Below, in pieces: positions 2,584 through 46,582 of a stretch of DNA of 47,185 bases. The stretch spans positions 1-47,185 of the forward strand of contig NJBI01000026.1 in NCBI GenBank assembly GCA_005222975.1, read 5' to 3'. The position numbers were made by a program, and so were the translations under genes. The notes beneath the pieces are model-generated. The model had not been told where the DNA came from and did not search any database. It worked only from the letters and a program-made list of their open reading frames with translations. The stretch is from Promethearchaeota archaeon Loki_b31 (lineage in GTDB: Archaea > Asgardarchaeota > Lokiarchaeia > Sigyniarchaeales > SOKP01). Every line of letters begins with the position of its first letter. Position 1 is the first letter of the stretch.

Positions 2584-5500
2584 TTCTTCAGCGAATATGG
2601 CGAGGGAGGGGGGAGAGAAGAAGAAAATAAATCAGACACGGGTTCTGAGAACGAGGAAGATAATAAGGACGATTCGAGTAGTGATACCGAGGAGGATTTC
2701 GATGTTGATGGAGAGTACGATCTTGATGGTTCCTTAGATTTAAGCGAAGCAGATAAATACGATTTCGATGGATCTCTAGATTTAAGTGAAGCAGATAAAT
2801 ACGATTTCGATGGGTCTCTAGATTTTAGCGAAACAGAAAAAAATGATGAGGAAAATCAATTAGGGCCAACAGAAGAGTCTAATAATTCTAAAGAAACAGA
2901 TGAAGGTGGTGATACGAATAATAATAGTGACTCGTCTTCAGATACTTCTGAGCAAGGAAATGAATCTTACGAAAATCTCAGTTCTGAATCCTCAAGTACA
3001 ATCTTAATAAGCGAAAACAAGGAAGAGATGCAAGAATCCGACCAAGACGAGTTAGAAAAAGAGATTGAAAAAGAACTCGAGGAAGGAGTAGAGGCTATAA
3101 ACAAATATTTAGAGGAAGAGGCAGAATTTATTAACGCTTATCAGGAAATGGTGGGGAAAGCAAGGGAATTTGACGAAGAACGAGAGAGCGAAGGCGAGGA
3201 ACGTCAGAAGACCGATGAAGAATGGGAAAAAGAAGTCGAAACTGCTGCCTATACCGCTGAACAACTCTACGAGAGTATGAAAGAAATAGAAGCTAACACC
3301 ATTAATGAAGAAATTTCTGAAATTAACGAAGAGCTTGAAATTGAAAAAGAAGTAGAGAAAAACGAGGAAATATCAGAACCTCACTTGAACGATTCTAAAG
3401 AAAAATCTTCTGAAAGTTACGAAGAACTATACGAAGAAGTATATAAAGAAAGATATGAGCTCAATCAACACCAAGCCGAACCCTTGATCGAAGAGGAGCT
3501 CGAGACCGAACCCGAACCTATAGTTAACGAAAAGGAAAAAGAACAACTTCAAGAGCTGGACGTTGAGGAACAATTTGAAACCGTTCGTTTTAACGAATAC
3601 ATGGATGAGTTAGTAGAGAAGCAAAATGAAGAAGCTGAAAAATTAAAAGAACAGGAAGAGCAAGAAGAGCTAGAAGCTCAAGCAAGTAAAATAAAAAAAG
3701 CGAATTTGGAACTATACGAAGAAGTATATAAAGAAAGATATGAGCTCAATCAACACCAAGTCGAACCCTTGATCGAAGAGGAGCTCGAGACCGAACCCGA
3801 ATCTATAGTTAACGAAAAGGAAATAGAACAACTTCAAGAGCTGGACGTTGAGGAACAGTTTGAAACCGTTCATTTTGACGAATATATGGACGAATTAGTA
3901 GAAAAGCAAGAAGAAGATAAGAATATTGAAAACGATAAAATCGAACAAGAAAAAGAAAATATCGAACAGACTCAAAAAGTAATACATCAATCGACCTATC
4001 TCCAAGAAAAATTAGAAGAACAAGAGGAGGAGTTAGAACTGGATTATGAAGAAAAAGACGAAGTTGAGCAAAACCAAGTCGAATCTGCGATCGAGGAAGA
4101 ACTCAAAACAGAACCTAAACCTATTATCAACGAGGAAGAGTTGGAATACATCAAAGTTTTGGAACCTGAGAAACAACTCGAAGCCGAGCTTTTTTACGAA
4201 TTCATAGAAGAACTAGCAAATAAGCAAAATGAAGAAAAAGAAGAACGCGAGGAGAATGAAGAACAAGAAGAAATCTCCACAGAACAGAAAGTAGCTCAAA
4301 TCATGCGCGAACTCGACATACCCCAAGAAATAAACACTGGGAAGACTGAAGTAGAATCCAATAGTCAAGAAGGAGAACTAGAGCATCAAACTACTTCTCC
4401 AGATGAGGAAGTGGTAGAACAATTAGAAATAGAGGAAAGTAAAGACCACCAACAAGAATTAGAAGAAATCCTCGAACAAGTTAGAAAAATCGAGCAAGAA
4501 GCTCTCAACGAAATCGAACAGGAAGAAGAAGATTCGAATAAAACCGCTGAAAAAAAATACGAGAGAGCTAAAAGCCTCTATAAACAACAAACCGGGAAAA
4601 GACCAATTTATGCGAACAAGGAAACAAAAGGATTTAAACAGTGGTTAGAGCAGAAAAAAAAATCGGAAGAAAAAGAGAAAACGAAACAGAAGAAAGAACT
4701 AAAAGAAGAACAGAAAAAAGAAGAAGATTGGAAAACAACCTTTATAGAATGGATAGAGGAAGCTTCTGAAGAAAAATGCATTGTTGAGCTTAAATCCGAG
4801 TTAAAAAAAGCGCTTGAGACTTATAACGAGTTCGAGGGTTTGACTCGAAAGTTTATGGAATTATATGAAAAGTCTCAAAACGAAAAACTTTCTGAAAAAG
4901 AAAAGAATATATTAAAATCCTTAACAAAAAGGCTGCAGGAACTAGATCCGATCCAACTAGAACTATTAACAAGTGTTTTTTTTATTAAAAACTATATCAC
5001 CCAATATTGGTATGATTTTTGGAATACACCTCGTGTTAATCGAGTGCTTAGCAAATTTTATAAGCACATCTCACAGAAATATAAAGAGTTAAGGAAAGCA
5101 CATGAAAATAAAGAAAATTCAGAATTAATAATAAAAGATTGGATAGAGCAAGTGTCTGAAGGGGAAATTAGCCCCGAACTTAAAGTAAAGTTAAAGGAAA
5201 TCGTTGAGAACTATAGCGAACTAGAAGAATTGGCGACTGTATTCATGAAATTATACACCAAGGAACAACGCGAAAAACTCTCTAAACATGAAAAACAAGA
5301 ATTAAAGGTGTTAACGAAAACGCTCCAAAAACTCGAATCCGGCAAGATCGAACTATTTGCAAACATACGGGCTATTAAACATTTTTTAAAAGATCAAAGT
5401 TTTGACGAATTCTCGGACAAAGCACGCGTAAATCGAATCCTTAGCCATTTTTTTAAACACATCTCGCAGAAAATAATAAAATTAAAAAAAGCGCAGGAAA

Positions 5501-8500
5501 ATAAAGAAAATTTAGAAGTATTAAAACTAGAATTAGATGCTATCGAAATCGAATCCAAAGATAAGAAAGATTTTCTTGAGGAAATTACTAAGCTAGGAAG
5601 TGAAGAATCGGACGAAGAGGATTGGAAAACAACCCTTAAACAATGGATAAAAGAGGCTTCTGAGGAAAAATGCAACGCTGAGCTTAAATCCGAGTTAAAA
5701 AAAGCGCTTGAGACTTATAACGAATTCGAGGATTTGACTCGAAAGTTTTTGGAATTATTTAAAAAGGCTCAATACGAAAATCTTACTGAAATAGAAAAGA
5801 ATATATTAAAAATCTTAACAGAAAGACTACAGGGTTTAGGTCCGATCCAATTAGAATTGTTAGCAAATATTCGGGCTTTTAAAGATTATTATTATAATCA
5901 TTTGTGGGAACTTATGAACAGGTTTTTTGTTAATCGAGTGCGTAGCAAATTTTTTAAGCACATCTCGCAGGAATATAATCGTGTAATTTTAGAATATGAG
6001 GATTTTAAATACACTAAACAAGAAATAAATCTAAGAAAAAATAATAATACATTTGAAGAAAAACTCCAATTTAATAAATCAGAAATCAAAGTGACCAATC
6101 AAGAGAAAGCTTTAATAAGGGAAGAAGATCAAGCGGGAATCCCCATTCAGCGAATTTTAGAAAAAATTAACAACCATAAAGAGAATATTGAAAATGATTT
6201 CTATTTTAAAAAATCTTTTCCTCTATTTCCAACTTCAAAAGTAACACTTACCCCCCATAAACAAAGTTCTGTTGGAAGAAAGAAAAATATATCTATAGAC
6301 ATTAATAATTTAAATTTCCATAATTTACTTGACGAACTATTACTTAAGAGTTATGAAGAGTTTTACATAGAACATTTTGCTTTAAAAGTAAAGAATCCTT
6401 ATGCAAATACGGGTCGCACATTACGAGCTGTATTTATTAATTGGATTAAAGAAAGATATTCAAATGATAATCCTAAAAAAGATATATTGTTAAAAAAAAT
6501 TAATAATATTAACGAAAATGAAGAAATTGCACAATACATTTTATATCTTCTTATAAATAGTAATGTTACTCAAATTGGATTGAATTCCATCCTTTTAAAA
6601 TTTCATTTAAATGTTTCAAGGGAAACAGTTCGAACAATTGCTGAAAAGAATTTTACTAATGAAGATTATAAAAAAAAGTTTTCTAAAGGTGATGGTTGGA
6701 ACAAATTCAGTTTGCAAAACTCAGAAAATTATAAAAAATTAATTTTTTCTAGTCTATTAAATAAAGAATTATGTAAATTTTTTGAACAATATTATATGAA
6801 TACAGGTAATTATGCAAATTTTGGGAAGAAAATTACTAAAAATTTTATTGATTGGATTAAGCAAAGAAATATTAATGCTTCTAAAAAAAAAGATATTTTT
6901 GAACTTATAGAAAATATTAATAAAAATAAAGAAATATTGAATTACATTATATATCATGTAAAAAATTATATTAATTCAAATAGCCTTAATAAACTTCCTT
7001 TGAAAGTTTTTTCAAATAAGTTTACACCTTTATTTTTAACAGTTTCCGATTTAACAATACAACGAATAATTACGAAACATATTTTCCAAGGTAACATTAA
7101 TGAATTTAGGAAATTGTTTCCTGTTGGTGGTAGAAAAAAGAAAAGAATTGTCGATTTAGTTAATTTGAGTTTCGATAGTTTGTTAAATTCATCATTAGTT
7201 GATAGGTTTAGAGTTTATAAAGAAATTTTTTATACTTCAACTAATCATATTTATGCTAATCATGGAATGGAAATTACCGAAGATTTTATAAAATGGATTA
7301 ATATAAATGAATGTGATATTACTGAAAAGGAAAATTTAATAAATTTATGTAAAAAAATAAATGAAAATGAAGAGATTTTATCTTTTATTATTCACCTAAC
7401 TCTTAATACAAACTATAACCTTTCTGAAATCGCGAGAGAACTCAACTTAATCAATCTTAATGGTCAAAGAAATACAATTACAAGGATTGTAAAAGAATAT
7501 ATTTTTAATTTTGATAAAGAGGAATTTGACAATAGATTTCATACATCAGATATAGTATCTCAAACAGGTATATCTACTCATTTATGTTTAAACAGTTTAA
7601 TTGCTTTATCTTTTAATAACAATTCAAGCAATATTAAATATTACTCGGAGATTCAAATGTTTCCATCTTCCAATAAACGAGCTGATGGACTTTTTTTAAA
7701 TATTAATTCTCCCAGATTTTTCTATGATCGTCTTACCAAATTTGAAGATAGTGAAGAATTAGTAAAAATTCTAAATATAAAAAAATCTCTTTTAAATAAA
7801 TTAATTGGAGTTCAAATTGAGTTTACTAGTGATTTATCAGATGAAAACATACTAAAAAAATGTATTAAATATCAAAATAAAATGATATTATTAATAATTG
7901 TTGGAACAAACTGGAAAAATAAAGATACTAATAGACAATTTGTTCCAAATTATTCAGAAATATTATATCCCGATAGAGTTTTAGTAATCAGTCCTGGATT
8001 ATTCATTAAATTACTTAATCTTAATTCATATTTTATTCAAGAATTTTATAAAATTTTAGAATACTCTAAAAATTCTGACATTGAATCATTAAATAAGTAT
8101 AACGATAATATTAACATTAATAATAAAATTACTTTTTATGAAGTTAATGAGTTAATCAAAGATACATCATCACAATTTTTTGAAAAATATTTTTATAATC
8201 CAGAAACAGAATTAAATAGTTTAGAAATTCCTTATATTTTTTCAAAATTTATGTCTTATTGTAAAAATAATTTTTCTTCTTTAGAATTTAAAACTATCAC
8301 AAGAGGCTCATCTATCGGTACATACTATATTTTTAATACTCTACATTTAAAACAATTTAATAGTCAAATAGACATGTCGTATAATTTAATTAGTTTAGCT
8401 GATATTTTATGTAATCATATTGGTCAAGATAAAATTTTCTTTAAAAAAATTACAAAGCCTAATTCTGATGATAACCTAAGGGATAAACAAAGAAGTATCC

Positions 8501-8544
8501 TAATAGAAAGCTCGTTTTTAGACAATTATCAAGAAGAATTCTAA
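2584..8544 (+). CDS. Giant modular protein (~1,986 aa if started at 2584; 1,838 aa from ATG 3028): acidic N-terminus, helical repeats, three HTH-like modules, C-terminal PD-(D/E)XK-like nuclease
   Basis: Frame open from 2539 to 8544; SD-like GGAGGAGA at 2573-2580; C-terminal motif YYSE...KRADG...QIEFT...KKCIKYQ...LIIVG. Start position uncertain. Confidence 0.75.
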   Translation, partial: FFSEYGEGGGREEENKSDTGSENEEDNKDDSSSDTEEDFDVDGEYDLDGSLDLSEADKYDFDGSLDLSEADKYDFDGSLDFSETEKNDEENQLGPTEESNNSKETDEGGDTNNNSDSSSDTSEQGNESYENLSSESSSTILISENKEEMQESDQDELEKEIEKELEEGVEAINKYLEEEAEFINAYQEMVGKAREFDEERESEGEERQKTDEEWEKEVETAAYTAEQLYESMKEIEANTINEEISEINEELEIEKEVEKNEEISEPHLNDSKEKSSESYEELYEEVYKERYELNQHQAEPLIEEELETEPEPIVNEKEKEQLQELDVEEQFETVRFNEYMDELVEKQNEEAEKLKEQEEQEELEAQASKIKKANLELYEEVYKERYELNQHQVEPLIEEELETEPESIVNEKEIEQLQELDVEEQFETVHFDEYMDELVEKQEEDKNIENDKIEQEKENIEQTQKVIHQSTYLQEKLEEQEEELELDYEEKDEVEQNQVESAIEEELKTEPKPIINEEELEYIKVLEPEKQLEAELFYEFIEELANKQNEEKEEREENEEQEEISTEQKVAQIMRELDIPQEINTGKTEVESNSQEGELEHQTTSPDEEVVEQLEIEESKDHQQELEEILEQVRKIEQEALNEIEQEEEDSNKTAEKKYERAKSLYKQQTGKRPIYANKETKGFKQWLEQKKKSEEKEKTKQKKELKEEQKKEEDWKTTFIEWIEEASEEKCIVELKSELKKALETYNEFEGLTRKFMELYEKSQNEKLSEKEKNILKSLTKRLQELDPIQLELLTSVFFIKNYITQYWYDFWNTPRVNRVLSKFYKHISQKYKELRKAHENKENSELIIKDWIEQVSEGEISPELKVKLKEIVENYSELEELATVFMKLYTKEQREKLSKHEKQELKVLTKTLQKLESGKIELFANIRAIKHFLKDQSFDEFSDKARVNRILSHFFKHISQKIIKLKKAQENKENLEVLKLELDAIEIESKDKKDFLEEITKLGSEESDEEDWKTTLKQWIKEASEEKCNAELKSELKKALETYNEFEDLTRKFLELFKKAQYENLTEIEKNILKILTERLQGLGPIQLELLANIRAFKDYYYNHLWELMNRFFVNRVRSKFFKHISQEYNRVILEYEDFKYTKQEINLRKNNNTFEEKLQFNKSEIKVTNQEKALIREEDQAGIPIQRILEKINNHKENIENDFYFKKSFPLFPTSKVTLTPHKQSSVGRKKNISIDINNLNFHNLLDELLLKSYEEFYIEHFALKVKNPYANTGRTLRAVFINWIKERYSNDNPKKDILLKKINNINENEEIAQYILYLLINSNVTQIGLNSILLKFHLNVSRETVRTIAEKNFTNEDYKKKFSKGDGWNKFSLQNSENYKKLIFSSLLNKELCKFFEQYYMNTGNYANFGKKITKNFIDWIKQRNINASKKKDIFELIENINKNKEILNYIIYHVKNYINSNSLNKLPLKVFSNKFTPLFLTVSDLTIQRIITKHIFQGNINEFRKLFPVGGRKKKRIVDLVNLSFDSLLNSSLVDRFRVYKEIFYTSTNHIYANHGMEITEDFIKWININECDITEKENLINLCKKINENEEILSFIIHLTLNTNYNLSEIARELNLINLNGQRNTITRIVKEYIFNFDKEEFDNRFHTSDIVSQTGISTHLCLNSLIALSFNNNSSNIKYYSEIQMFPSSNKRADGLFLNINSPRFFYDRLTKFEDSEELVKILNIKKSLLNKLIGVQIEFTSDLSDENILKKCIKYQNKMILLIIVGTNWKNKDTNRQFVPNYSEILYPDRVLVISPGLFIKLLNLNSYFIQEFYKILEYSKNSDIESLNKYNDNININNKITFYEVNELIKDTSSQFFEKYFYNPETELNSLEIPYIFSKFMSYCKNNFSSLEFKTITRGSSIGTYYIFNTLHLKQFNSQIDMSYNLISLADILCNHIGQDKIFFKKITKPNSDDNLRDKQRSILIESSFLDNYQEEF
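2719..2844 (+). repeat. Three tandem 42-bp units encoding D(L/F)DGSLD(L/F)SE(A/T)(D/E)K(Y/N)
   Basis: Units at 2719-2760, 2761-2802 and 2803-2844; many differences are synonymous in the giant-protein frame. Confidence 0.9.
3424..3909 (+). repeat. Near-identical ~201-bp intragenic direct repeat (3424-3624 and 3709-3909), with a degenerate third copy near 4070-4230
   Basis: ELYEEVYKERYELNQHQ(A/V)EPLIEEELETEPE...YMDELVEKQ occurs twice, offset 285 bp. Confidence 0.9.
4720..5976 (+). repeat. Three copies of a ~120-aa helical repeat (DWKTT..WI.EASEEKC..ELKSELKKALETYNEFE...VNR..SKF.KHISQ)
   Basis: Copies at about 4720-5082, 5120-5472 and 5614-5976; copies 1 and 3 are similar at DNA level. Confidence 0.85.
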
Positions 8545-11307: not shown

Positions 11308-13230
11308 TTACTTGGATTTTTCCCAAAATATTGCGAGTTGCTGGCATACAAATTCAATATCTTGAATTATTTCATCATCTTTGTTACCTTTAACAAAAAA
11401 TTCTTTTAATTTTCCGCAAATCTCAGTTTTATTAGTAAGATCTTTTATTGAGTTGCGAATTGTTAAAATGAATTTGTTTAATGAAATAATAATTTCTTTG
11501 ATTAACCACTCTTCGAAAATGATTTGATCTGAGGATGATTGAAAGTTATATGTAACAACAAACCTAACTATGTCTTCATACTTATAAAAGAATTTTTCCG
11601 GGATGACTACTTTATAATCTTCTAAATCCTTTAATAGAGCATCCTTATTCATGCTAATAATGTAGTCTGGCCAAACGTCATCTGATACATTTAAATCGCT
11701 AAAAATAAATAATTCTAATACTCTCAAAGCAATGTTTCTACCAATATATCTGCTTCTCGGGTCTATAAAATTTTTGGATGCTTGACCAGGAATTTTTCTA
11801 ATAAAGATTTTATCAATTAAAGTGTAGAGCATACGACATATGTGGTCAACAACTATTTTAAAAGTTAAAGGCTCGTTATTTGGGTTTTCAGATAAAACCT
11901 TGTTTTCTCGGGCGATTAAACGAGTAATACTTATATTCAAGCTGCGCAAAAATGTTCTTAAAAAGTCGTAATTAATCTGTGAAATATTTTTATTAAATAT
12001 TTTTTCAAAAAATACATTTGGATATTCTACATTTGTTAAAACTGAAAAAATGTCCATAAAATCTTGGATCTCTTTAATATTTTTAGCACTAATTACATCA
12101 TCCAATGTCTTATTAAGTTTATTTAATCTGTTCCTAAACTCTCCTGGTAAAAATAATAAATCGCTTACTTCCAAAGCTTCTAAACTTCCACTACCAAAGT
12201 AATATTTCATATACAATAGAAATAAATTAAACTGAGACTTTTGAGATGGCAAATTATTAGCTTGAAATGTCGCATATAGCGTCGATTTCTTGTCAATGTA
12301 ATCGAAAAGTCTAATTAAAGAGTTCTTTTTCTCATTTGTGTAGTCAAAATTCTGTAGGAACTCTTTTTTTATTATATCTAGTTTAGGAAAAATTGAGTCT
12401 TCTACTCTTGAATTTACGAAATTTAGGAAATCCAATAAAGGCGAAAAGTTCTGAAGCAGATTACACTTCTTATAGAAATAATATAATAAATCAACGAGTC
12501 TTTCTTTAGCAAAAGAGTATTCCTCTAAAGCAATTTGATATACCCTATCCCTACCTTTTAATAGTTTATCTGAATACGCTTCTGGAACATTTTTAAAGTA
12601 TTTCAGAAAGTAATAAAGGTACATATAATAATAATTATCAAATAATTCATCTTTGCTATTTTTAATAACAATCAAAAAATTTAGAGTATTGTTATTATCG
12701 CCGTTTTTTATAATAGCTGCGTCTAAAACGATATAAAATTTTTCTTGAGTTAGCTTTCTCAGAATTACTCCTAATATTGAAACCACTAAATATAAATAAC
12801 CGAACGGAGAGGTAATCCCATCTGAAGTGTCTTTAAAACTTTCAGCAAATTCGTTAAAAGATCCCATCTCTTCGGGGGATAAGTAATAAGAATACTCTAA
12901 AAATAAGTGGTTGTCAGAAATCTTCTCCTTAGCAATTAATTTTAAGGAATTTGTATCAAATCCGCAGAAGTTTTGTAAATAAAATTTTAAGTAGATGTGG
13001 AAATATTGAAAAAAAAAAGTACTATAAGTTTTTTGAATTATTCTTTCTTGATTTTTTAATTTGAACTGTTCCCATTCTTTTCTAATCCCTTCTTTAAAAT
13101 CACTAAGCAAAGCTCCTTTACTTTTTAAAATATCAAAAAAGACATGGGAATTCATCTTAATAGTTAATTCTTTCCCTTTCGCTTTTTCTCCTATGGATTT
13201 CAGAATGGTACTTAATTCTTTATTCGTAAT
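11308..13230 (-). CDS. Hypothetical protein (615 aa from ATG 13155; 640 aa from proposed ATT start at 13230)
   Basis: Long ORF with an open upstream extension TNKELSTILKSIGEKAKGKELTIK bounded by an in-frame TAA. Confidence 0.75.
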   Translation of the reverse strand: MTNKELSTILKSIGEKAKGKELTIKMNSHVFFDILKSKGALLSDFKEGIRKEWEQFKLKNQERIIQKTYSTFFFQYFHIYLKFYLQNFCGFDTNSLKLIAKEKISDNHLFLEYSYYLSPEEMGSFNEFAESFKDTSDGITSPFGYLYLVVSILGVILRKLTQEKFYIVLDAAIIKNGDNNNTLNFLIVIKNSKDELFDNYYYMYLYYFLKYFKNVPEAYSDKLLKGRDRVYQIALEEYSFAKERLVDLLYYFYKKCNLLQNFSPLLDFLNFVNSRVEDSIFPKLDIIKKEFLQNFDYTNEKKNSLIRLFDYIDKKSTLYATFQANNLPSQKSQFNLFLLYMKYYFGSGSLEALEVSDLLFLPGEFRNRLNKLNKTLDDVISAKNIKEIQDFMDIFSVLTNVEYPNVFFEKIFNKNISQINYDFLRTFLRSLNISITRLIARENKVLSENPNNEPLTFKIVVDHICRMLYTLIDKIFIRKIPGQASKNFIDPRSRYIGRNIALRVLELFIFSDLNVSDDVWPDYIISMNKDALLKDLEDYKVVIPEKFFYKYEDIVRFVVTYNFQSSSDQIIFEEWLIKEIIISLNKFILTIRNSIKDLTNKTEICGKLKEFFVKGNKDDEIIQDIEFVCQQLAIFWEKSK

Positions 13231-13391
13231 TCTTTAACCACTTTAAATCAAATATTAATTTAATAATATAATCAAATGTATTTAGTAAACAACCCTTAAA
13301 TATAATATTATAATGAAAATTCAAAAATAAAAATCTTAGCTAATCGAATAATAACGAATTTATTTTCAAAATAAAATTTTTTTTAAAAAAA

Positions 13392-14432
13392 TTAATTAAA
13401 CAATTTTGTGATTTCGTCTGTTTCTGTATAAGACATTGGCGTCTTTTTATTGTTGTCATCTATTACTAAATATTTTTCTTTTTTCGAAGTAAATTGACCA
13501 ATCAATTCAGAATCGATGCCGTTTTTCGTCATTAAGTCAATTAAATCTGCAGCAAATTCTTCTTCAATTGAAATTAAAAGAGAACCGGAAGAAATCGTAT
13601 TATACGGATTTAAATCAAAAACTTTACTTAACTCCGTTGGTTCTGGTAAAACATTTATTTTGGTTTTTTCGATTAAAACCCCTAAATTCGAGGCAATTGC
13701 CATTTCCGCGATGCCACAAAATAGACCCCCTTCAGTAGGGTCGTGCATAGAATTAATTTTAAAATTATCGTTAGATAATAAGGCTTCTTTGAAGACGCTG
13801 ATGCCAGGATTAAATAGGTAATCTTTACATTTTTCAATAAATTCGACGCTGTACCCTTTATCCTTTAATATATTCTCTTTTTCTCGTGCTATAATGGATG
13901 TGCCTTCGATAAAAATCCCCTTGGTTAGTATTATTGAGTCTCCTGCTTTTGCTCCAGATGTCAAAACCAATTTATCCTTCTCAACTTCGCCAAGGAGAGA
14001 ACCAACAATAATTGGTCTGGTAAGGTCTGAAGTAATTTCAGTGTGACCGCCTATTACAGAAATCCCTAAAGATTTGCATGTATCATGTATGTTTTTGAAA
14101 ATGTTTTCAATTAAATCTTCATCTGTAAGTTTCTGAGGTAGTAGAATTGTTGATTGAAACCACTTAGGAGTAGCTCCTGTGCACACAACATCGTTTACAT
14201 TGACATTTACGGCGTAGTATCCTATAGCGTCTGTAGCAAAAGTAATTGGGTCGGTTTTAGCAACTAAGTAATTATCGCCCATATCAATCACAGCCGCATC
14301 CTCTCCAATGCTAGAGCCCATAATAACTCTATCATCTTCTAAATGAGTGTTAGAAATAAATTTCTTTAACATCTTTAAGAGAAACTTATGTTTAAGCTTA
14401 CCAATTGGAAATTTATTTTGATTCTCTCTCAT
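13392..14432 (-). CDS. AIR synthase-related (PurM/HypE/ThiL superfamily) protein
   Basis: GEDAAV, KTDPITF, NVND...GATP, GGHTE, MHDPTEGGL and SSGSLLI motifs. Confidence 0.85.
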   Translation of the reverse strand: MRENQNKFPIGKLKHKFLLKMLKKFISNTHLEDDRVIMGSSIGEDAAVIDMGDNYLVAKTDPITFATDAIGYYAVNVNVNDVVCTGATPKWFQSTILLPQKLTDEDLIENIFKNIHDTCKSLGISVIGGHTEITSDLTRPIIVGSLLGEVEKDKLVLTSGAKAGDSIILTKGIFIEGTSIIAREKENILKDKGYSVEFIEKCKDYLFNPGISVFKEALLSNDNFKINSMHDPTEGGLFCGIAEMAIASNLGVLIEKTKINVLPEPTELSKVFDLNPYNTISSGSLLISIEEEFAADLIDLMTKNGIDSELIGQFTSKKEKYLVIDDNNKKTPMSYTETDEITKLFN

Positions 14433-16852: not shown

Positions 16853-18304
16853 TTACTGTTCATTTGAAATGTTGTAATCGTGCGATTTTAAAAATTCAAT
16901 ATAATCGCAATAAAGCGATATACTTCTCGCGGCATCTCTTAACGAGAAAAAATATAGAACTCTCTCCTCGTGTAGAATTTTTTTGACTGAAGAAAATCGT
17001 TGCGCGAGTTCTGAAGAGTCTGCTATACTGGGCATACAAAAAACAAATGGTTTCGAAGTAGATTTCTGGATTTTTATCATATTTTTGAATATATGGCTAG
17101 ATATAAAATGCGGCCATAACGGAATCACTATAATATCGATGTTAGTATCTTCAATCACAATTTCTATACATTTTAAAAATATTTCTAAAACAAAACCTGA
17201 AGCTCCTAAATCAATTGGGTTCCTAACATTTACATTTTCGTAGGGTAATACCTCACTAATTTTCTTTTGTGATTCCAAGGTTAATTCTGGAATTTTTAAA
17301 TAATGTGAGCTAAATAAATCTGTTGTGTTTACACTAGAACCACCACCAGGTGTTATTATTCCTACATTTCTACCATCTGGTATATATTTTGGGAATAATA
17401 ATTCGAAAGTTTTCATTGCGTTCCAAAATTCCTCGTTGTCTTTAACGATTATCGCCCCCGTTTGCTTAGCCATTGATCGCCATAATTTTAAATCGCTTAC
17501 AATGGCGCCCGTGTGCGAAAAAGCCGCTCGAGAGCCATCTTTCGTGTAACCACCTTTCCAGATAATAACAGGTTTAATTTTTCCTGTTTTTTTAAGCTCT
17601 AAAAAGAAATCATAACCCGTTGCTGAACCAAACGATTCTAGATAAGCTGAAATTACATGGGTGGTCGAATCACTACGGAAATGTTTCAAAAAATCAACAC
17701 AGTTCAGATCTAATTGGTTTCCAAACGATACTCCATACCTGAACCTGAGATCGCGCTTATAACCTACATCTAATAATTGGCTCATGTGTCCTCCTGATTG
17801 AGACATAAACGAAATAGAACCAGGAGTATTATTTTTAGCGCTAAATGTAAACGACATTCCTTCAGTGGCGTTATATGGGCCTAAACAATTTGGACCTATT
17901 ATTCTTGTGTTTGTACCTTTGATTATTTGTTTTAATTCTTGCTCTAATTTTAATCCAGATGAGTCTCCCGTTTCAGAAAATCCGGAAGCAAATATTACGA
18001 CCCAAGGGATTTCTTTCTGTACGCACTCTTTTAGAACAGCAGGAATATATTTTGTTTTCACTGAGATATAAGTTGTATCTACAGGAAAAGGAATATCAAG
18101 TACTGAAGAATAACACTTCCAACCAAGCACTTTTTCGTACTTTGGATTAACCGGGTAAAATGTTTCTGCCCATTTTGAATTTTTAAAGGCGGGTAAGTAA
18201 AGCATCGCACCAAATCTCGATTTTTCGCTCGCTCCTATAAACGCAATGTGTTGCGGGTGAAATAAGGTGTCGAACTTATCAAAGTTAAAATCTTCGGGTG
18301 CCAT
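16853..18304 (-). CDS. NDP-forming acyl-CoA synthetase alpha-subunit-like protein (CoA-binding)
   Basis: IAFIGAS, YPVNP, SGFSE, RIIGPNCLG, SQSGG, SFGNQLD, phospho-His motif AAFSHTGA, NPIDL. Start moved to ATG 18304 (MAPEDF). Confidence 0.85.
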   Translation of the reverse strand: MAPEDFNFDKFDTLFHPQHIAFIGASEKSRFGAMLYLPAFKNSKWAETFYPVNPKYEKVLGWKCYSSVLDIPFPVDTTYISVKTKYIPAVLKECVQKEIPWVVIFASGFSETGDSSGLKLEQELKQIIKGTNTRIIGPNCLGPYNATEGMSFTFSAKNNTPGSISFMSQSGGHMSQLLDVGYKRDLRFRYGVSFGNQLDLNCVDFLKHFRSDSTTHVISAYLESFGSATGYDFFLELKKTGKIKPVIIWKGGYTKDGSRAAFSHTGAIVSDLKLWRSMAKQTGAIIVKDNEEFWNAMKTFELLFPKYIPDGRNVGIITPGGGSSVNTTDLFSSHYLKIPELTLESQKKISEVLPYENVNVRNPIDLGASGFVLEIFLKCIEIVIEDTNIDIIVIPLWPHFISSHIFKNMIKIQKSTSKPFVFCMPSIADSSELAQRFSSVKKILHEERVLYFFSLRDAARSISLYCDYIEFLKSHDYNISNEQ

Positions 18305-18433
18305 TTGTATATGAAAAAATTTGAACTGTTTTATTTTTTTTGAAATTCGAAGATTAAAAGCTAATATGTACAAAATTGTTGCTTTTATTATGAAAATATA
18401 ATAGAAATAGAAAAAGAAAAAGTAGAAGTGTAC

Positions 18434-28045: not shown

Positions 28046-28288
28046 GCAATAAAATTTTTTAACTAATAAAAAATAATGGTTTTTCTGAAAAATAGAAAAG
28101 TTTTTGGTTTTACAATTACAAAATCCATTTTATCGGACATAACCCAGAACCCAGTTATAACCATTAAGTTAAAAGCCTATAGTATTAAATCTTAATATTT
28201 TTTGATTTCTTGAATTAATTATAAATAGTTGAATGGTTTTATTTATCATAGTTAAAATCAATAAATTAAAATTAGATGTGATTCTAAA

Positions 28289-28690: not shown

Positions 28691-29603
28691 GAAGCAATTG
28701 GTTAGCATCCTCTTGATATCTCGACGAAATATGGGTTAAAATTAATTGTTTAGCGTTCATTTTTTTAGCATCGTTAGCTGCGTCAACAGAAGTGGAATGT
28801 TTCTTTTCAAATGCGACATCAGACAACTCCTTCGAAAAAGTTGCTTCGTGAATTAAAATGTCAGAATCTCTTCCTAATTCGATCAAGCTTTCGCAAGGGA
28901 TTGTGTCACCCGAGTATGTCACTTTTCGACCCGGTCTCTTTGGACCCACTATCCCTTCTTTTAAAGGATCAATTGTTTTTCCTTCATATTCTATAATTTC
29001 CCCTTCCTGTAATTTTTTCCACAGTTTACTCTCAGGTATTCCGAGTTCAATTGCTCTTTTGGGTTTAAATTTTCCATACCGTGGCTTTTCAACGAAAGAA
29101 TAAGCAAATGTTAATACTGAATGATCTACTTCTGTATATTTGAGAGTGTATTTATCGTTTTCAAAAATCACATTATCTTCTAAGAATTTTTCTTCACTAG
29201 GGATTTCGGAGTCCAAGGTCTCGAACACTATTAACTTATTATTATCATTATCAATTTCTACTATACTAATGGGATAATTTGCTTTTAGTCCGAGAATTTT
29301 TCTATGGACAAATAAATAAAGAAACAAATTCCGAGGTCCAAATATAGTAACGGGAGCCGTTCTTTCAATTAAACCAAACCTAAATAAAAGCCCTGGAAGA
29401 CCAATGATATGATCTCCATGAAAATGCGAAATTAATATTTTTAAAGGTTTATTAAACTTTAAACCCGCTTCAATTAGCCTTCTTTGGAGGTCTTCCCCAC
29501 AATCAAATAGAAAGAGTTCGTTTTTATATTTAAGAGCTGTTGAAGGAAGGTTCCTTTCGCGAACAGGAATCGCCGCGGAGGAACCTAGGATTATTAATTC
29601 CAT
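28623..29603 (-). CDS. rnz: Ribonuclease Z
   Basis: LGSSAAIP..RN, FDCGE, SHFHGDHIIG, GP-containing exosite arm, YSGDT, HEATF, HST, LTHISSRY. Confidence 0.95.
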   Translation of the reverse strand: MELIILGSSAAIPVRERNLPSTALKYKNELFLFDCGEDLQRRLIEAGLKFNKPLKILISHFHGDHIIGLPGLLFRFGLIERTAPVTIFGPRNLFLYLFVHRKILGLKANYPISIVEIDNDNNKLIVFETLDSEIPSEEKFLEDNVIFENDKYTLKYTEVDHSVLTFAYSFVEKPRYGKFKPKRAIELGIPESKLWKKLQEGEIIEYEGKTIDPLKEGIVGPKRPGRKVTYSGDTIPCESLIELGRDSDILIHEATFSKELSDVAFEKKHSTSVDAANDAKKMNAKQLILTHISSRYQEDANQLLQDAKLIFPNTILAKDLMRISLQ

Positions 29604-29623
29604 CGAAGTTCATTTAATATTAA

Positions 29624-30820
29624 TTATTTGCTTTTTCTTAACTGCGAAATTTCAAGCCGTTGTTGAATATTTTGCTTGCTCAGATCGTCAACCAAACTTT
29701 CGAGTTCTTTAAACCTTAAATTAACATCTGGGTTTATTGTTTGTGTTGTATTTGCCTGAGTTTGAATTTGAATTCTTAAACCATCTAACTCTGCTTCAAT
29801 TTCATTTGATTTTTGATCTTTTCGTTTGATTTGGTTGTCTAAATCTTCGTATTTTCTTTTTATTCTTATAGCTTCGTTCTTAATCGTAGTAATTTCTTCT
29901 TCTTTCGTTTTTAACGCGTTTTTTGATTCAGCTAATTGTTTTTGCAAAAAACTTGCCATTTCTCTTTGAATTTTCAATTTGCCTTCAATATCTCCTTGAG
30001 GGATGCTAACAGGAGGAGCTTCTCCTTCTTTAATTTGTTCTTGAAGGGTTGTTATTTGTACTTTTGATTTACTTAATTTACTTTTTAATTCTTCCACAAC
30101 TTCTTTTAAAGCAATCGGCTCTGCTCTACCTTTCTTACCTTTATCTTTTTTCTCGTATTTAGTTATAACCTTTTTTAATTCTTCATTTTGTCTTTTTGCT
30201 TTATTAAGATTTTTTTGCAGATCTTCTAGTAGATTTTGCGTAATATTATTATCAACATGGTTAGTTTCTATTTGAGAAGAGCTATTCTCGAGCTTTTCAG
30301 TTAAATCCGTAATTTTATCAGTTAATAATTCAATTTTTTCGTCCTTTTCTCTTATTTTTTCGTTATATTCATCGCTTCCAAGATCTTTACTCTTCAACCG
30401 CCTAATTAAAGATTCTTGCTTATTTAATTTATCTTGTAATTCATGAAGTAAAAGATTAAGTGGCGGTTTGTCCTTTTTTCTTAGCTCTTCTACGCTAATA
30501 ACAGAAGTATTAGTTGTTCTCCTAACAAGATTATCGTGGTTTTTTTGTAATTCCATTTTGTCTTTTCTTAAAAAACCCATTCGATTCTTTAGCTCTCGTA
30601 TTTCTCGATCCTTAGCATCTAATTCAATATTTAATTTTTCTTCTTTCGCCTTTTTCATCTTTTTTTTCGGAGCCTTTTCGTCGAACATTTCCTCGTATCT
30701 CATAACTTCTTCTTCAAAGCCATCAATTTTATCTAAGTAAAGATTAATTTCATTATCTTTTTTGTTTAGTTCTGACTGTAACTCGTTTATCTTCTTGCGC
30801 AAGTTATCTTCTTCCGTCAT
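29624..30820 (-). CDS. Long coiled-coil protein
   Basis: 398 aa, K/E/L/Q-rich heptad pattern throughout; 20 bp upstream of rnz. Confidence 0.8.
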   Translation of the reverse strand: MTEEDNLRKKINELQSELNKKDNEINLYLDKIDGFEEEVMRYEEMFDEKAPKKKMKKAKEEKLNIELDAKDREIRELKNRMGFLRKDKMELQKNHDNLVRRTTNTSVISVEELRKKDKPPLNLLLHELQDKLNKQESLIRRLKSKDLGSDEYNEKIREKDEKIELLTDKITDLTEKLENSSSQIETNHVDNNITQNLLEDLQKNLNKAKRQNEELKKVITKYEKKDKGKKGRAEPIALKEVVEELKSKLSKSKVQITTLQEQIKEGEAPPVSIPQGDIEGKLKIQREMASFLQKQLAESKNALKTKEEEITTIKNEAIRIKRKYEDLDNQIKRKDQKSNEIEAELDGLRIQIQTQANTTQTINPDVNLRFKELESLVDDLSKQNIQQRLEISQLRKSK

Positions 30821-30912
30821 CTTCGCACCTTACCATTTAATTAGAAAAAATTATATTATATATATTTCATCTATTTCCACTTTTTTAATCTTTTTCTTTC
30901 TGCAAATGAGAT

Positions 30913-32826
30913 TTAATATATGTCGAAATCTTTGATGGTAAATTTCTTAATCTTGCTCAATATAGGAAAAAGACTTAAATAATTAAAAGTTAAGAAAGCG
31001 ACAAAAAGTAAACCAATTATAATGAAAGGCGTTAATATATGTGGTAAAGATACTCTTTGAAATAAAACGAGCGAATTTAATATCATTCCTATTCCTAAAC
31101 TCAAAAAAAGTGATGGTATAATTACATAGAGAGCTTCCAAGAAAAGAATTTTCTTAATATTTTTATATTTCGAGCCAAGAGCCTTCATTATTAGGAAATC
31201 TTTAGCTTTTTCCATAATACTACCTTTTTGATAATTATATAAAGAGAGCATCGAAATTACGGCCATGACAATAATTAAAAAAGCGGGATATAGAGTTAAA
31301 TTATTTAAATATTGTATATTATCGTCGAAAGTTTGATTTAGGTTGATATAAGTGAAATTATCTCCAAGATTTCCACTAATAATTAATTCAATATTGTCTA
31401 TAACGCTATCATATTCGCCTGGTCTTATTTTTAACAAAAGGAGATTAATATTTTGTCCACTAAAATTCAAATCTTCTTGCATAACCTCTAAATCTACATA
31501 TCCCGCAAAGCCGCTATAAAAACTATCCAAGACAACCCCGGAAATGTGAAAGGCGTGACCTAATCCTAATTCCTCAACTCTCAAACTCTGCGATAATGGA
31601 TAATCAAAAAAATTATAACTTAATCCGTCTCCAATTATCATGTTTACTGAATCTTCCTGAGTAAAATATTCTCCCTCAATTTCAAAATCTTGTATTATTT
31701 CACTAATATTAACTCCTACAATCGGGAAAATTCCTGAACGTTGTTGACCTGCTATTAAATAACCTCCATCTACGAGATAATGATACCCATCTAATTCAGT
31801 GAGATTAAAAAAATTAATCAAACGCTGATCTATGCTTTCAACTTCAGTAATACTATTTAGTTCTTCAATATCAGAAAGGTTAAACATGTAGCTTGGATTT
31901 AAAAAATCAATACTGTTCTCAGTTATAATAATATTCGGATTAGAAAACATACTGTACATCAAAGTATAGTTTTGAATAACATCTCTATGACCAATAGCAA
32001 TGATATCTTCGCCTTGAGACTTTCGTATCCATTCTTGAGACGAATCCCTCATAACGATATTCCCTAATCCTAAAGTAAAAATTACTAAGGAAATTATGGA
32101 AAAAACTATTAAATACCTCCTAAATTCCCCTTTTCTCCTGATTGTGTTAATAACGGAAATTTTAAAATTAAATCCTATTGAGGACAACCATTTTGGAACT
32201 AATATAAATCCTCTTGAAGCGTCGTAATTATAGGGTATATCCTTTGAAAATAATTTTATGGTATTTTGATTTCCTAGCTTCCTTAAAATTACGCCAGGAA
32301 CGAAATAAATTCCCCCTACACACGAAAAAAACAATATCGGGGTATAAATTAAATCAATTTGAAAAGAGGATACAATTCCTAAAAGCGACATAATAAACGT
32401 GAAGATACCGTATGAAACAAAACCGATTATTAAACCTATCAAGAAACCAACGATAAACACTACATATACTTCGGTTAAATAAAAGTTATATAATTTCTTT
32501 GGTAGCGTCCCCAAGGCTTTCATAATAGCAATATCACGTTTTTTATTAATAACTAGAGTGCTTGTCACGATTATAACAATAATAAAAGCCAAAGTAACTA
32601 TTAGGCTCAGTATTAGAATAGTAAAATCTGTAAAGACTATGCTAATTCCTCCTGAAAAATAAAATTCATTTTCGTACTGATAAGTTAAAAATCTATTTAA
32701 GCCCATTGAAGACATAAAATATGTTAAGAAAATTGTGAGCGCAATAACTAAAGCAATTATTACTACATAAGGGAAAGTGACCTCCCTTTTTCTAAAGAAG
32801 TCTTTTAAGGCAAAATCTAAACTTAT
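30913..32826 (-). CDS. FtsX/MacB-family ABC transporter permease (proposed ATA start at 32826 or 32829)
   Basis: Two permease motifs (KKRDIAIMKALG, AKDFLIMKALG). Upstream extension SLDFALKDFFRKREVTFPYVVIIALVIALTIFL supplies the expected N-terminal helix and first TM segment. Confidence 0.85.
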   Translation of the reverse strand: MSLDFALKDFFRKREVTFPYVVIIALVIALTIFLTYFMSSMGLNRFLTYQYENEFYFSGGISIVFTDFTILILSLIVTLAFIIVIIVTSTLVINKKRDIAIMKALGTLPKKLYNFYLTEVYVVFIVGFLIGLIIGFVSYGIFTFIMSLLGIVSSFQIDLIYTPILFFSCVGGIYFVPGVILRKLGNQNTIKLFSKDIPYNYDASRGFILVPKWLSSIGFNFKISVINTIRRKGEFRRYLIVFSIISLVIFTLGLGNIVMRDSSQEWIRKSQGEDIIAIGHRDVIQNYTLMYSMFSNPNIIITENSIDFLNPSYMFNLSDIEELNSITEVESIDQRLINFFNLTELDGYHYLVDGGYLIAGQQRSGIFPIVGVNISEIIQDFEIEGEYFTQEDSVNMIIGDGLSYNFFDYPLSQSLRVEELGLGHAFHISGVVLDSFYSGFAGYVDLEVMQEDLNFSGQNINLLLLKIRPGEYDSVIDNIELIISGNLGDNFTYINLNQTFDDNIQYLNNLTLYPAFLIIVMAVISMLSLYNYQKGSIMEKAKDFLIMKALGSKYKNIKKILFLEALYVIIPSLFLSLGIGMILNSLVLFQRVSLPHILTPFIIIGLLFVAFLTFNYLSLFPILSKIKKFTIKDFDIY

Positions 32827-32870
32827 TATTCACTCACCAAAGTTAAATATTTATTAATTCATAATCCTAA

Positions 32871-33617
32871 CTACTCTTCACTTGTTATCTTACCATCTTC
32901 AAAAATTATGACTCGATTTGCAAGTTTTATTAAAAAATCGTCGTGTGTTGCTATAATAATCGTTTTACCATCCTTTTTCATATCATTAAAGAGATCTCGT
33001 ATAAACATACTTGTATTTTTATCGAGGTTGGCTGTAGGCTCATCTGCCAAAATAATTGGAGGATTGTTTGCTAACGCTCTTGCTATTGCTACCCTCTGTT
33101 GTTCACCAGCCGAAAGTTGAAATGGTAAGTGTTCTCTTCTATCCCCTAAACCTATTTTTTTCAATAAACTTACTGCTTTCTCTCTTTGCTCTTTTAGGCT
33201 CATTCCAGCTAAATTCATTGGGAACATCACATTTTCTTCAGCAGTTAAAGTGCTAATAAGATTATAGTTTTGAAAAACGAATCCTGTATTAATTAATCTA
33301 AATAGAGAGAGTGATTCTTCATGTAAATCGGTAATTTTTACCCCATTTGAAAAAATCGTGCCTTCGTTAGGAGAATCTAACCCTCCAATTAAATTTAGTA
33401 AAGTAGTTTTACCTGCTCCTGACGGACCTTTAAGAACGATGAAATCTCTCTCTTTTATTTTCAGATTTACATCATATACGGCTTTTACAATAAAATCTCC
33501 AATTTCATAATTTTTGTATAAATTTTTAGCTAAGATTACAATGTTTTCCTCTCTAATTTCGTTTATAATATCGATATCCTCTAATTCAGTAGGCTCTTCA
33601 AGAAAATCTTTATCCAT
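32871..33617 (-). CDS. LolD/MacB-family ABC transporter ATP-binding protein
   Basis: GPSGAGKTT, GFVFQNYNLI, LSAGEQQRV, ILADEPTANLD, ATHD. Confidence 0.93.
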   Translation of the reverse strand: MDKDFLEEPTELEDIDIINEIREENIVILAKNLYKNYEIGDFIVKAVYDVNLKIKERDFIVLKGPSGAGKTTLLNLIGGLDSPNEGTIFSNGVKITDLHEESLSLFRLINTGFVFQNYNLISTLTAEENVMFPMNLAGMSLKEQREKAVSLLKKIGLGDRREHLPFQLSAGEQQRVAIARALANNPPIILADEPTANLDKNTSMFIRDLFNDMKKDGKTIIIATHDDFLIKLANRVIIFEDGKITSEE

Positions 33618-44729: not shown

Positions 44730-44746
44730 TTTTTTTAACCTCTATT

Positions 44747-45955
44747 TTATTTCATTTTTTCTATTAATTTATCTACAATATCTTTAAAATCTAAATCCTC
44801 TGCTTTCGGAACGAATTTAATCTTAATCAACTCGTCCATAACATCTATTCCAGCAGCTTTCATTTGTTCAGCTATTTCTTGTGCAGCTTGACCTGACCAT
44901 CCATAAGAACCAAAAGCTAATCCAACTTTATTCATAGGTTTCAACCCTCTTTGATAACATAAGTATTCTGCAACAGAGGGGTATAGTCCATTGTTTAGGG
45001 TAGGACTTCCAATCAATATTGCTTTTGCCTTCATTGCCTCAGTAATAACATCAGAATAATCTGCTTGAGTCAATCTGAATCTTTTAACTGGAATACCTCT
45101 ATGACGGATTTCTTTCGTTAAAGCTTTAGCAATTTTAGCTGTACTCTCCCACATTGTATCGTAAACGATTAAAACGCTTTTTCCTTCGATTTCTCCGCTT
45201 GACCATTTCCTATACTTCTCTAATATCTCTGGGATGTTTTTTCTCCAACCAACCCCATGAGCAGTACATACAACATCAATAGGCAATGCTCCAACTACGG
45301 GAAGCGTTTTTGCAATAAGTCCCGATAAATGAAGTAAAATATTAGCGTAGTATTTTTCCGCTTCTTCCATAATCTCACACATGTCATTTTCATCGTCCCA
45401 ACGCATAGTGGTTGCAATATGTTGCCCGAAAGCATCGCTAGAAAACAGGATATTTTTCCCATTATCGTCACTCATAAATGCTACCATGCTATCTGGCCAA
45501 TGTATCATGGGTATCGGTACGAATGTGAATTTTTTACCATTTCCAATATCCAAAGTGTCTCCATTCTTAACGGCTCGAATTCTATCGAATATTTCAGCGT
45601 CAATTTCTTGATGGAAATGGCTCTTTAGAACATCAACCCCTCTGGCAGAAGTAATTATTTCTGCGTTAGGTATGTGTTTTAAAATTAGCGGGAAAGATCC
45701 AGAATGGTCCATCTCAATGTGATCCATGATTAGATAATTGATTTCTGCTGGATCACATATATGTTTTATTTTATCCAGATAATATTCGAAATACGGACGC
45801 TTAACAGTGTCTATTAATACAGTTTTATCTCCTGATTTAACTATATAAGCGTTATAGGAGGAACCTCTATGAGTGGAGTATCCATGAAAATTTCTTACTT
45901 CAAAATCTACATAACCAACGTACCATACGTCTTTCAATAATTCTAAATGAGTCAT
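44747..45955 (-). CDS. fprA: Flavodiiron protein (O2/NO reductase, FprA type)
   Basis: GSSYNAY, HIEMDH, HWPDSM, SSDAFGQH, YDTMWEST, GSPT, FGSYGWSG. Confidence 0.93.
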   Translation of the reverse strand: MTHLELLKDVWYVGYVDFEVRNFHGYSTHRGSSYNAYIVKSGDKTVLIDTVKRPYFEYYLDKIKHICDPAEINYLIMDHIEMDHSGSFPLILKHIPNAEIITSARGVDVLKSHFHQEIDAEIFDRIRAVKNGDTLDIGNGKKFTFVPIPMIHWPDSMVAFMSDDNGKNILFSSDAFGQHIATTMRWDDENDMCEIMEEAEKYYANILLHLSGLIAKTLPVVGALPIDVVCTAHGVGWRKNIPEILEKYRKWSSGEIEGKSVLIVYDTMWESTAKIAKALTKEIRHRGIPVKRFRLTQADYSDVITEAMKAKAILIGSPTLNNGLYPSVAEYLCYQRGLKPMNKVGLAFGSYGWSGQAAQEIAEQMKAAGIDVMDELIKIKFVPKAEDLDFKDIVDKLIEKMK

Positions 45956-46134
45956 ATTTTTTTAATTCCAATTTTTGGATTAATTGTTGTTATTTAAGTT
46001 ATTTTTTTGTTTGTTTTTAATAAATTTAATTTATTTATCTTATAAATTTTAGAGAAGTTTTATGCTAAATACAAGCTAACGAATAACCTATCGCCTAATA
46101 TAAAAGAAAAAAATAAGAATAAAATTAATTAAGT

Positions 46135-46275: not shown

Positions 46276-46421
46276 TATAAACTACCTTTCTTTTAATTTA
46301 ATTAATTTGTATTTATGGATTTGTTAATTGAATGTACATTAAAAATATTAATTTAATATTTTATAAATTAATCTAATTAGGCTTTAGCCTTTAAACTTGG
46401 AGTCTGAAAAAAGTACAATTT

Positions 46422-46565
46422 TTAAGGTGTATTTTTTTTTACAAAAAATTTCTTAGAGGTGCGACACCTCGGACATTTATAGTCTTCCCCAACTTTTTCA
46501 AACGGAATCTCCTGTTCTTCGTCTATATATACGTAATTACATCTTTTACATCTGTGTATAGTCGT
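46422..46565 (-). CDS. Rubredoxin-like protein, ~47 aa, with no canonical start (absent from ORF track)
   Basis: TIHRCKRCNYVYIDEEQEIPFEKVGEDYKCPRCRTSKKFFVKKNTP; two CxxC pairs; GGTGG 6 nt before ACG. Confidence 0.8.
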   Translation of the reverse strand, partial: TTIHRCKRCNYVYIDEEQEIPFEKVGEDYKCPRCRTSKKFFVKKNTP

Positions 46566-46582
46566 AATTTTCCACCATATTT

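Follow-up and report, generated by a model that had tools for sequence, protein, structure and literature searches.

Comparison of the genes of contig NJBI01000026.1 of Promethearchaeota archaeon Loki_b31 (47,185 nt; the whole of this contig is referred to here as the window) with their orthologues made it highly probable that, in the genus to which this archaeon belongs, translation of a minority of genes (approximately 2–6%) starts regularly and heritably at AUU, AUA, AUC or ACG. Within the window, such starts are proposed for the genes of a TPR/SNAP-like protein (g2) and an FtsX-type permease (g3), probably for that of a conserved protein of 640 amino acids (g1), and possibly for that of a small rubredoxin (g4). 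These four genes, together with that of a giant acidic-repeat protein (g5), had been picked out in a first-pass annotation of the window, which proposed that they start at ATT, ATA, ACG or TTC behind motifs resembling the Shine-Dalgarno (SD) sequence. The coordinates were checked with lists of stop-to-stop open reading frames (ORFs) and by direct reading of the sequence, and all were confirmed; at each of the five loci, as claimed, no in-frame ATG, GTG or TTG was present between the upstream stop codon and the conserved N-terminal coding sequence. For comparison, the five loci were taken from 20–40 other genomes of the genus, all of them independent assemblies. The window itself is the complete contig C66 of a metagenome-assembled genome (MAG) of 3.52 Mb in 99 contigs (GC 31.5%). 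That it belongs to an Asgard lineage, on which part of the interest of the original proposal depended, was borne out by the relatives of the g2 protein, all of which were labelled Promethearchaeota/Promethearchaeia (Lokiarchaeia) and derived from marine sediments and cold seeps; near-identical DNA was found in sediment and cold-seep metagenomes from at least five studies.

Judging from the orthologue alignments, ATT 27991 in g2 and ATA 32826 in g3 are almost certainly non-canonical start codons. The g2 gene (26339–27991, minus strand; Pfam SNAP/TPR) has its ATT (27991–27989) directly after an in-frame TAG, and the first ATG (27928) lies 21 codons further in. Across 30 genomes of the genus the start was ATT in 18, ATC in eight and ATA in four, with no canonical start in any of them, and the orthologous starts either followed TAG or TAA directly or had a TGA two codons before them. 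No conservation was seen for the ATG at codon 22, which in the orthologues was represented by GTG, TTG or CTT, or was absent. Five nucleotides before the ATT is a ribosome-binding motif, GGGTTGAT (27997–28004, minus strand), which was invariant in 29 of 30 orthologues; it is an imperfect SD-like motif, in which TGAT plus 5 nt corresponds to the modal spacing of the genome, GGTGAT plus 5 nt plus ATG.

The reading frame of g3 (30913–32829, minus strand; Pfam FtsX) opens with ATA ATA after a TGA, and its first ATG (32715) occurs 38 codons in. The intervening extension contains the N-terminal motif typical of FtsX proteins and the first transmembrane helix, and all orthologues aligned with it from residue 1 or 2. 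Among 20 orthologues from the genus, the codon preceding the conserved S-L-D-F-A-L-K-D-F was ATG in three, ATT in at least nine and ATA in six, and GGTG(A) was always found 7 nt upstream of the codon at the start position. Since the ATA or ATT is homologous to the ATG of the orthologues and the distance from GGTG(A) is constant, the likeliest start in the window is the second ATA (32826–32824), giving a gene of 30913–32826. The SD core here, GGTGA (32834–32838, minus strand), stands at an aligned spacing of 6, and the overlapping TGA region supplies the in-frame stop at 32832–32830.

The extensions of both genes showed the substitution pattern of coding sequence. When compared with orthologues, the g2 extension had 88 synonymous changes if read in frame, but only 35 and 39 if read in the two alternative frames; for g3 the corresponding values were 200 against 49 and 34. 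These results bear on the simplest alternative, that translation really begins at the nearest downstream ATG, GTG or TTG and that the upstream stretches are untranslated leaders, open by chance. Each of g1, g2, g3 and g5 does possess a downstream in-frame ATG, and for g1 the clade that shares its start is too uniform to prove coding selection on the extension. However, the g2 and g3 extensions are conserved as protein throughout the genus, with the in-frame excess of synonymous change just described; a downstream start would deprive g3 of its first transmembrane helix, would depend in g2 on an ATG that orthologues lack, and is not available to g4, which has no canonical codon at all. Moreover, the downstream ATGs are without SD motifs, and Pfam domains would be truncated across the genome (see below). 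Initiation at downstream codons was therefore considered extremely improbable.

Changes to the genetic code were also considered. Reassignment of a stop codon was rejected, given that the bounding stops differ between loci, being TAA in g1 and g5, TAG in g2 and TGA in g3. The use of TAG as a sense codon was rejected likewise: beyond the TAG of g2 the frame is closed again by a TGA just two codons further up, and the only internal TAG encountered replaces an invariant glutamine in a single genome.

For g1 (11308–13230, minus strand; family unknown), the start is probably ATT 13230–13228 or ACG 13227–13225, to judge from a comparison of orthologous loci, one of which was cut by the end of its contig. 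The ORF (11308–13233) follows a TAA and begins AGA ATT ACG, with the first ATG (13155) placed 26 codons further in. The arrangement TAA-AGA-ATT-ACG was common to six genomes forming the window's own clade, while the 23 other complete orthologues carried GTG, TTG or ATG at the position of the ATT or at an adjacent codon. The ancestral GTG can still be recognized in the window (13239–13241, minus strand); comparison with orthologues showed that it has been put out of frame by a 14-nt, duplication-like insertion (AAAGAATTA..). The conserved N-terminal sequence NKEL..ILKSIGE stays in frame, and between it and the stop codon only ATT and ACG are left in the six-genome clade.

The rubredoxin gene g4 (46422–46565, minus strand; Pfam Rubredoxin) lies in a 55-codon frame (46422–46589) without any ATG, GTG or TTG, where the candidates are ATT 46568 and ACG 46565. 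The ACG (46565–46563) occupies the start-codon position of the orthologues; the aligned codon in 28 of these was ATG in 25, GTG in two and ATA in one, in each case behind GGTG(G/A). In the window, an SD-like GGTGG (46572–46576, minus strand) precedes the ACG by 6 nt. No other lineage shares this ACG. The rubredoxin-reductase-like gene upstream, which runs off the end of the contig, contains an in-frame TAG (47030–47032, minus strand) where 29 of 29 orthologues have CAG or CAA (glutamine). On this comparison the TAG is probably a nonsense mutation. An intact paralogue of the reductase-like gene is present at G000:C38:37008-37448, within an intact paralogous operon. Because the neighbouring gene of its operon carries this nonsense codon, g4 may itself be decaying. 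The chances that ACG 46565 is a functional start were put at about even from the alignments; it gains credibility from the conserved ACG of another gene, V-ATPase subunit C, described below. In the single orthologue with ATA (L108, on G053:C58), which comes from another species of the genus, the gene lies downstream of the reductase gene and behind GGTGAAAAATTT; its alignment identifies this ATA as a further, independent near-cognate start.

The second alternative was that the anomalous starts reflect assembly or sequencing errors, or pseudogenes with mutated start codons. It draws on the circumstances of g4, where the change from ATG to ACG is restricted to this lineage, adjoins a change from CAG to TAG, and coincides with an intact operon elsewhere; and on g1, where a canonical GTG was displaced by an insertion. 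Against this, the same codons recurred, at the head of intact ORFs, in six (g1), 30 (g2) and 20 (g3) independent assemblies, which upholds the original argument that independent errors were unlikely to account for so many cases. Other public runs yielded contigs spanning 27186–28440 (X5), 29128–33513 (X1), 32012–33095 (X5) and 46350–46807 (X9), the last being identical to the window throughout; any differences in them lay at other positions, and they showed ATT 27991–27989 (X5), ATA ATA 32829–32824 (X1 and X5) and ACG 46565–46563 (X9) unchanged, with the proviso that one of the public runs behind these contigs may itself be the source sample. A rate of insertion and deletion sufficient to affect five starts would also have disrupted the window's long ORFs, and these are intact. 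Homopolymer indels might have pushed a nearby ATG or GTG out of frame, and such a codon is present near four of the sites; they were rejected since numerous assemblies made independently agree on these sequences. Finally, an ACG start was conserved in 28 of 30 genomes for V-ATPase subunit C, an essential gene. Both error and decay were excluded for g1, g2 and g3, while decay may apply to g4; as a general explanation, error or decay was judged highly improbable. Alignment of orthologue N-termini, proposed at the outset as a check, placed a canonical codon at the homologous position for g1, g3, g4 and the V-ATPase subunit, but for neither g2, within the genus, nor g5.

Two genes outside the window were compared in the same way. 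The V-ATPase subunit C gene (atpC; G000:C13:24960, plus strand) begins with ACG in 28 of 30 genomes and with ATG in the remaining two, behind GGTG plus 7–8 nt; this geometry is matched by g4. Aligned across the genus, the ACG can be taken as a real, conserved start. The second gene encodes the initiation factor aIF1 (Pfam SUI1; G000:C88:29421-29774, minus strand), and has no ATG, GTG or TTG before the zinc knuckle. In 28 of 28 genomes of the genus, a conserved AAAGGTTGTGA was followed by three variable codons, an invariant ATT AAA GA(C/A), and then the zinc-knuckle motif ICPxC. Alignment with aIF1 of M. jannaschii places the N-terminus at the ATT. Elsewhere in the order and class, aIF1 genes of other genera had ATA, TTG, GTG or ATG at the homologous position. 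The first-pass annotation had linked relaxed start selection to a/eIF1, a connection that gains weight from this ATT-started gene. It had also proposed that aIF1 be inspected for substitutions in its fidelity loops; alignment to solved aIF1 provided no grounds for claiming any that would relax fidelity.

The signal was then evaluated across the genome, in a set of 2,992 likely genes derived from ORFs of at least 100 codons. The consensus preceding the start in the 979 genes with an unambiguous ATG was GGTGAT plus 5 nt; when 5-mers matching AGGAGGTGATCC were tallied, their number peaked at an aligned spacing of 5. Among in-frame ATT, ATA or ATC codons (ATH) upstream of the first canonical start, 33 and 26 had a 5-mer SD match at spacings of 5 and 6 respectively, as against approximately six at each other spacing; for out-of-frame ATH codons the values at these two spacings were only 7 and 9 of 3,605, and A/T-rich control codons produced no peak. 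ACG codons in frame upstream of the first canonical start had an SD match in 8 of 91 cases. The enrichment of ATT, ATA, ATC and ACG behind an SD sequence is thus specific to frame and spacing and exceeds chance. The aligned spacing of the near-cognate ATH peak (5–6) coincides with the ATG mode (5), and among the genes of the window the SD fits the spacing of ATG genes for g2, g3 and g4. An SD-like motif had been reported before every one of the five starts; this description was apt for g3, g4 and g5, where the motif is strong, held imperfectly for g2, and held least for g1, where it is weak. The broader proposal, of relaxed, SD-guided initiation in this lineage, is supported by the orthologue alignments, by the genome-wide statistic and by the Pfam domains considered next.

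In total, 77 candidate genes with SD-led near-cognate starts were obtained. The 5'-most SD-led in-frame codon was ATG in 137 genes, ATT in 36, TTG in 32, ATA in 25, ATC in 15, GTG in eight and ACG in seven. In the 20 candidates that were scanned, Pfam domains typically began at profile position 1–4, between 1 and 40 residues after the proposed start. Domains that would be destroyed by beginning at the first canonical codon were AAA_5, dCTP deaminase-like, GD_AH, IF-2B, Roadblock, ABC2, AcnX, AFOR (ACG) and V-ATPase subunit C (ACG); that gene callers truncate such proteins, as had been anticipated, was evident from these cases. The distance from the upstream stop to the first canonical start was heavy-tailed, with approximately 300 genes at 20 codons or more against approximately 110 by extrapolation; read from this tail, the proportion of affected genes has an upper bound near 6%.

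A similar pattern was detected beyond the family. In 1.2 Mb (G059:C1:1000001-2200000) of a complete genome of 6,035,313 bp, belonging to another family of the order, seven in-frame ATH codons were recorded at aligned spacing 5, against none out of frame. This signal, which amounts to approximately 0.7% of genes, was weaker than in the window's genome; examples of SD plus ATH on G059:C1 are 1647625 (ATA), 1650626 (ATC), 1302319 (ATA), 1914232 (ATC) and 2111975 (ATT). Given its presence in a complete genome of a second family, experiments in cultured Lokiarchaeia should be possible.

The candidates included a false positive, aIF2-gamma, in which a mini-intron had mimicked such a start. This gene (G000:C32, approximately 7216-7244, minus strand) contains a 29-nt insert within its P-loop codons (GHVDHG / KTTL), which adopts a relaxed bulge-helix-bulge (BHB) fold. 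The insert occurred at the identical site in 8 of approximately 27 genomes of the genus and was absent from the rest. Its stems covary: the central helix pairs AUGG with CUAU or CCAU, and the inner pairings are GCC/GGC, GTCG/CGAC and AAGAC/GTCTT. From this covariation, the insert is likely to be a spliced mRNA mini-intron in the gene of an essential translation factor.

The g5 gene does not fit this pattern. Its ORF (2539–8544, plus strand), bounded by TAA, runs through 163 codons ahead of its first ATG (3028), so that no canonical start is found before codon 164. At 2584 and 2587, TTC TTC stands directly behind a strong SD, GGAGGAGAGGG; the second TTC has the optimal aligned spacing. Seven paralogues and orthologues, three of them in this genome, have a common frame and a near-invariant block of 34 nt (2573–2606, plus strand), consisting of GGAGGAGAGGG and then TTC TTC AGC GAA TAY GGC GAG GG. 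Downstream of the block, indels within the family were of 42 and 12 nt and many changes were synonymous, while a 1-nt indel occurred just upstream of the SD; it follows that coding begins at approximately the SD. None of the seven has a canonical or a common near-cognate start codon at this point, and the alignments indicate that the family is genuinely without a canonical start. TTC TTC itself was replaced once by ATT TTC and once by TTT TTT. The original reading of TTC as the start codon was not adopted, because TTC is not near-cognate and the synonymous exchange of TTC and TTT suggests that the codons are read as phenylalanine. Codons in other frames (ATG 2570, ATG/ACG 2597 and ATA at approximately 2595) were rejected also, being not conserved, or belonging to frames that close quickly and evolve non-synonymously. 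A far more speculative reading would have the family initiate at a non-near-cognate UUC by virtue of its very strong SD, or through an unknown RNA element in the 34-nt block.

The g5 gene forms part of a two-gene cassette, which occurs at least three times in the genome and in a few relatives. In this cassette, an ORF of 227 codons precedes the giant protein with its acidic tandem repeats of 14 amino acids (DLSEADKYDFDGSL). The copies are situated at 1863–8544 (plus strand) in the window, at G000:C1:27053-29998 and at G000:C96:1-2614; both the upstream sequence and the 34-nt block around the SD are conserved.

For the remaining genes, the following mechanism is suggested. The SD (consensus GGTGAT, approximately 5 nt before the start) would pair with the 3' end of 16S rRNA and so set the near-cognate codon in the P site, where the ordinary initiator Met-tRNA (CAU) would pair with a single mismatch, affecting the third codon position in AUH and the second in ACG. 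Such complexes would evade rejection by aIF1 often enough for useful, though probably low, expression. Because the aIF1 gene starts at AUU throughout the genus, synthesis of aIF1 should rise when fidelity drops, which would create a homeostatic loop resembling that of bacterial infC. Initiation at the near-cognate codons, insertion of methionine, the weakness of these starts and the autoregulation of aIF1 are all inferred from sequence. The initiator tRNA gene, which was located by its sequence pattern (G000:C55, approximately 13287-13393, minus strand), has the canonical features (anticodon CAU, A1:U72, and an anticodon stem with three G-C pairs), so the near-cognate starts are not to be ascribed to altered decoding by a variant initiator. 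This gene has an intron of 30 nt in the T-loop. It was missed by ARAGORN, which returned 14 tRNAs and no tRNA-Met, and by the Rfam tRNA model, which returned 22, none with CAU.

Several points weigh against this explanation of the starts. The evidence for initiation consists of sequence and of the assembled contigs of public runs. The MAG has only a partial 16S rRNA gene, at a contig end, from which the 3' end is absent, and the anti-SD was assumed from the archaeal consensus. In g1 the SD is weak, and the genomes of its six-member clade differ too little to reveal a coding pattern of substitution; in g4, the change from ATG to ACG could represent decay beside the nonsense TAG; and g5, which is without a common near-cognate codon, falls outside the model. 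Furthermore, several SD motifs contain GTG or TTG (GGTGA, GGTTG), which makes initiation on a tiny upstream ORF, followed by re-initiation, compatible with the sequence.

This last point belongs to a third alternative, in which some hidden event provides the canonical start: a BHB mini-intron, a programmed frameshift, or the GTG or TTG of an SD-like motif followed by termination and re-initiation. Introns of 29 nt resembling BHB elements do exist within coding sequence in the genus, as in aIF2-gamma. Several codons could act in this way: g1 keeps an out-of-frame GTG 9 nt upstream, the g2 motif GGGTTGAT includes a conserved out-of-frame TTG, and the aIF1 leader has TTG-TGA within the conserved AAAGGTTGTGA. 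As g5 offers no near-cognate candidate, some other mechanism is needed there. Conversely, g3, g4, atpC and aIF1 are collinear, without insertion, with orthologues that bear ATG at the same codon. A scan for BHB elements, which was unspecific and gave many chance hits, found none conserved among the g5 paralogues and none that would restore the frame across the 14-nt insertion of g1, while the positive control, aIF2-gamma, did show its intron. Near g5, none of the canonical codons in other frames is conserved, and the ATH spacing peak equals that of ATG, as predicted by direct, SD-guided initiation. On balance, a hidden event is improbable as an explanation for the whole set, and unlikely for g2, g3, g4, aIF1 and atpC in particular, although it may apply to g5; direct initiation at near-cognate codons is preferred.

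Near-cognate initiation has precedents elsewhere. The starts listed as accepted in archaea are AUG, GUG and UUG only (PMC4705826, PMC7531240), and no description of AUU, AUA, AUC, ACG or other non-canonical starts in Asgard archaea or Lokiarchaeota was found in the literature. In vitro, aIF1 of S. solfataricus discriminates against AUU, which implies that aIF1 sets the relevant fidelity (PMC4705826). In bacteria, AUU is the start of infC, encoding IF3 and subject to translational autocontrol, and of pcnB (Butler et al. 1987, as cited in PMC4705826); autoregulation through a weak start is described for infC as well as for eukaryotic eIF1 (PMC4705826). The Lokiarchaeial aIF1 gene resembles infC in placing an SD-led AUU on the gene of a factor that rejects non-canonical starts, and in conserving a weak near-cognate start over evolution. 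It differs in that aIF1 is unrelated to IF3, being a homologue of eukaryotic eIF1, that its start varies outside the genus, and that its autoregulation is putative. Whereas a handful of genes with near-cognate starts are known from E. coli, there would be far more in this genus. NCBI translation table 11, which is applied to bacteria and lists ATT, ATC, ATA and CTG as initiators, matches the ATT/ATA/ATC set and the dependence on SD, but does not include ACG, which is conserved in V-ATPase subunit C. The likeness to eukaryotic near-cognate initiation extends to the factor family (eIF1/aIF1/SUI1), the spectrum of AUU, AUA, AUC and ACG, and the feedback logic of a weak own start (PMC4705826). In eukaryotes, however, the codon is chosen by scanning and Kozak context rather than positioned by an SD, and near-cognate codons mostly begin upstream ORFs or N-terminal extensions, whereas here they would be the sole start of the main ORF. 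The archaeon Haloferax volcanii also shows signs of near-cognate initiation: in ribosome profiling, approximately 30% of putative alternative sites were near-cognate, and these were set aside by the authors (PMC7261190). Those sites are alternative or internal, unlike the conserved, sole starts of core genes described here.

Common gene finders consider ATG, GTG and TTG only (PMC2848648). Because callers of this kind (Prodigal-type) allow no other start, approximately 2–6% of the proteins of these Asgard genomes would be truncated in, or missing from, public databases. The portions affected include the P-loop of an AAA ATPase, the first transmembrane helix of a permease, V-ATPase subunit C, AFOR and the entire zinc knuckle of aIF1, with consequences for searches for eukaryotic signature proteins and for structure predictions. 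The AUU start of aIF1 suggests a feedback loop convergent with those of bacterial infC and eukaryotic eIF1. More tentatively, and with rather less than an even chance of being correct, Lokiarchaeia may conduct initiation at a systematically lowered stringency, with AUU, AUA, AUC and ACG as ordinary regulatory starts of core genes (V-ATPase subunit C and permeases among them), and with the level of aIF1 held under negative feedback through its own AUU. If so, the same logic would have been invented independently for a third time, and in the archaea most closely related to eukaryotes; eukaryote-like use of near-cognate codons would then predate scanning.

Two further features of the window were noted. 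The CoA-ligase-like ORF at 16853–18433 (minus strand) is in the same frame as a 1203-codon ORF at 18434–22045 (minus strand), a single TAA standing between them; its next canonical start is TTG 18373, 20 codons downstream. Lastly, the segment 44738–45991, which contains a flavodiiron-like gene (44747–45961), was exchanged for 20 other letters in contigs that came from different studies (three public runs). This replacement joins 44737 to 45992 and represents presence or absence of the gene at strain level.

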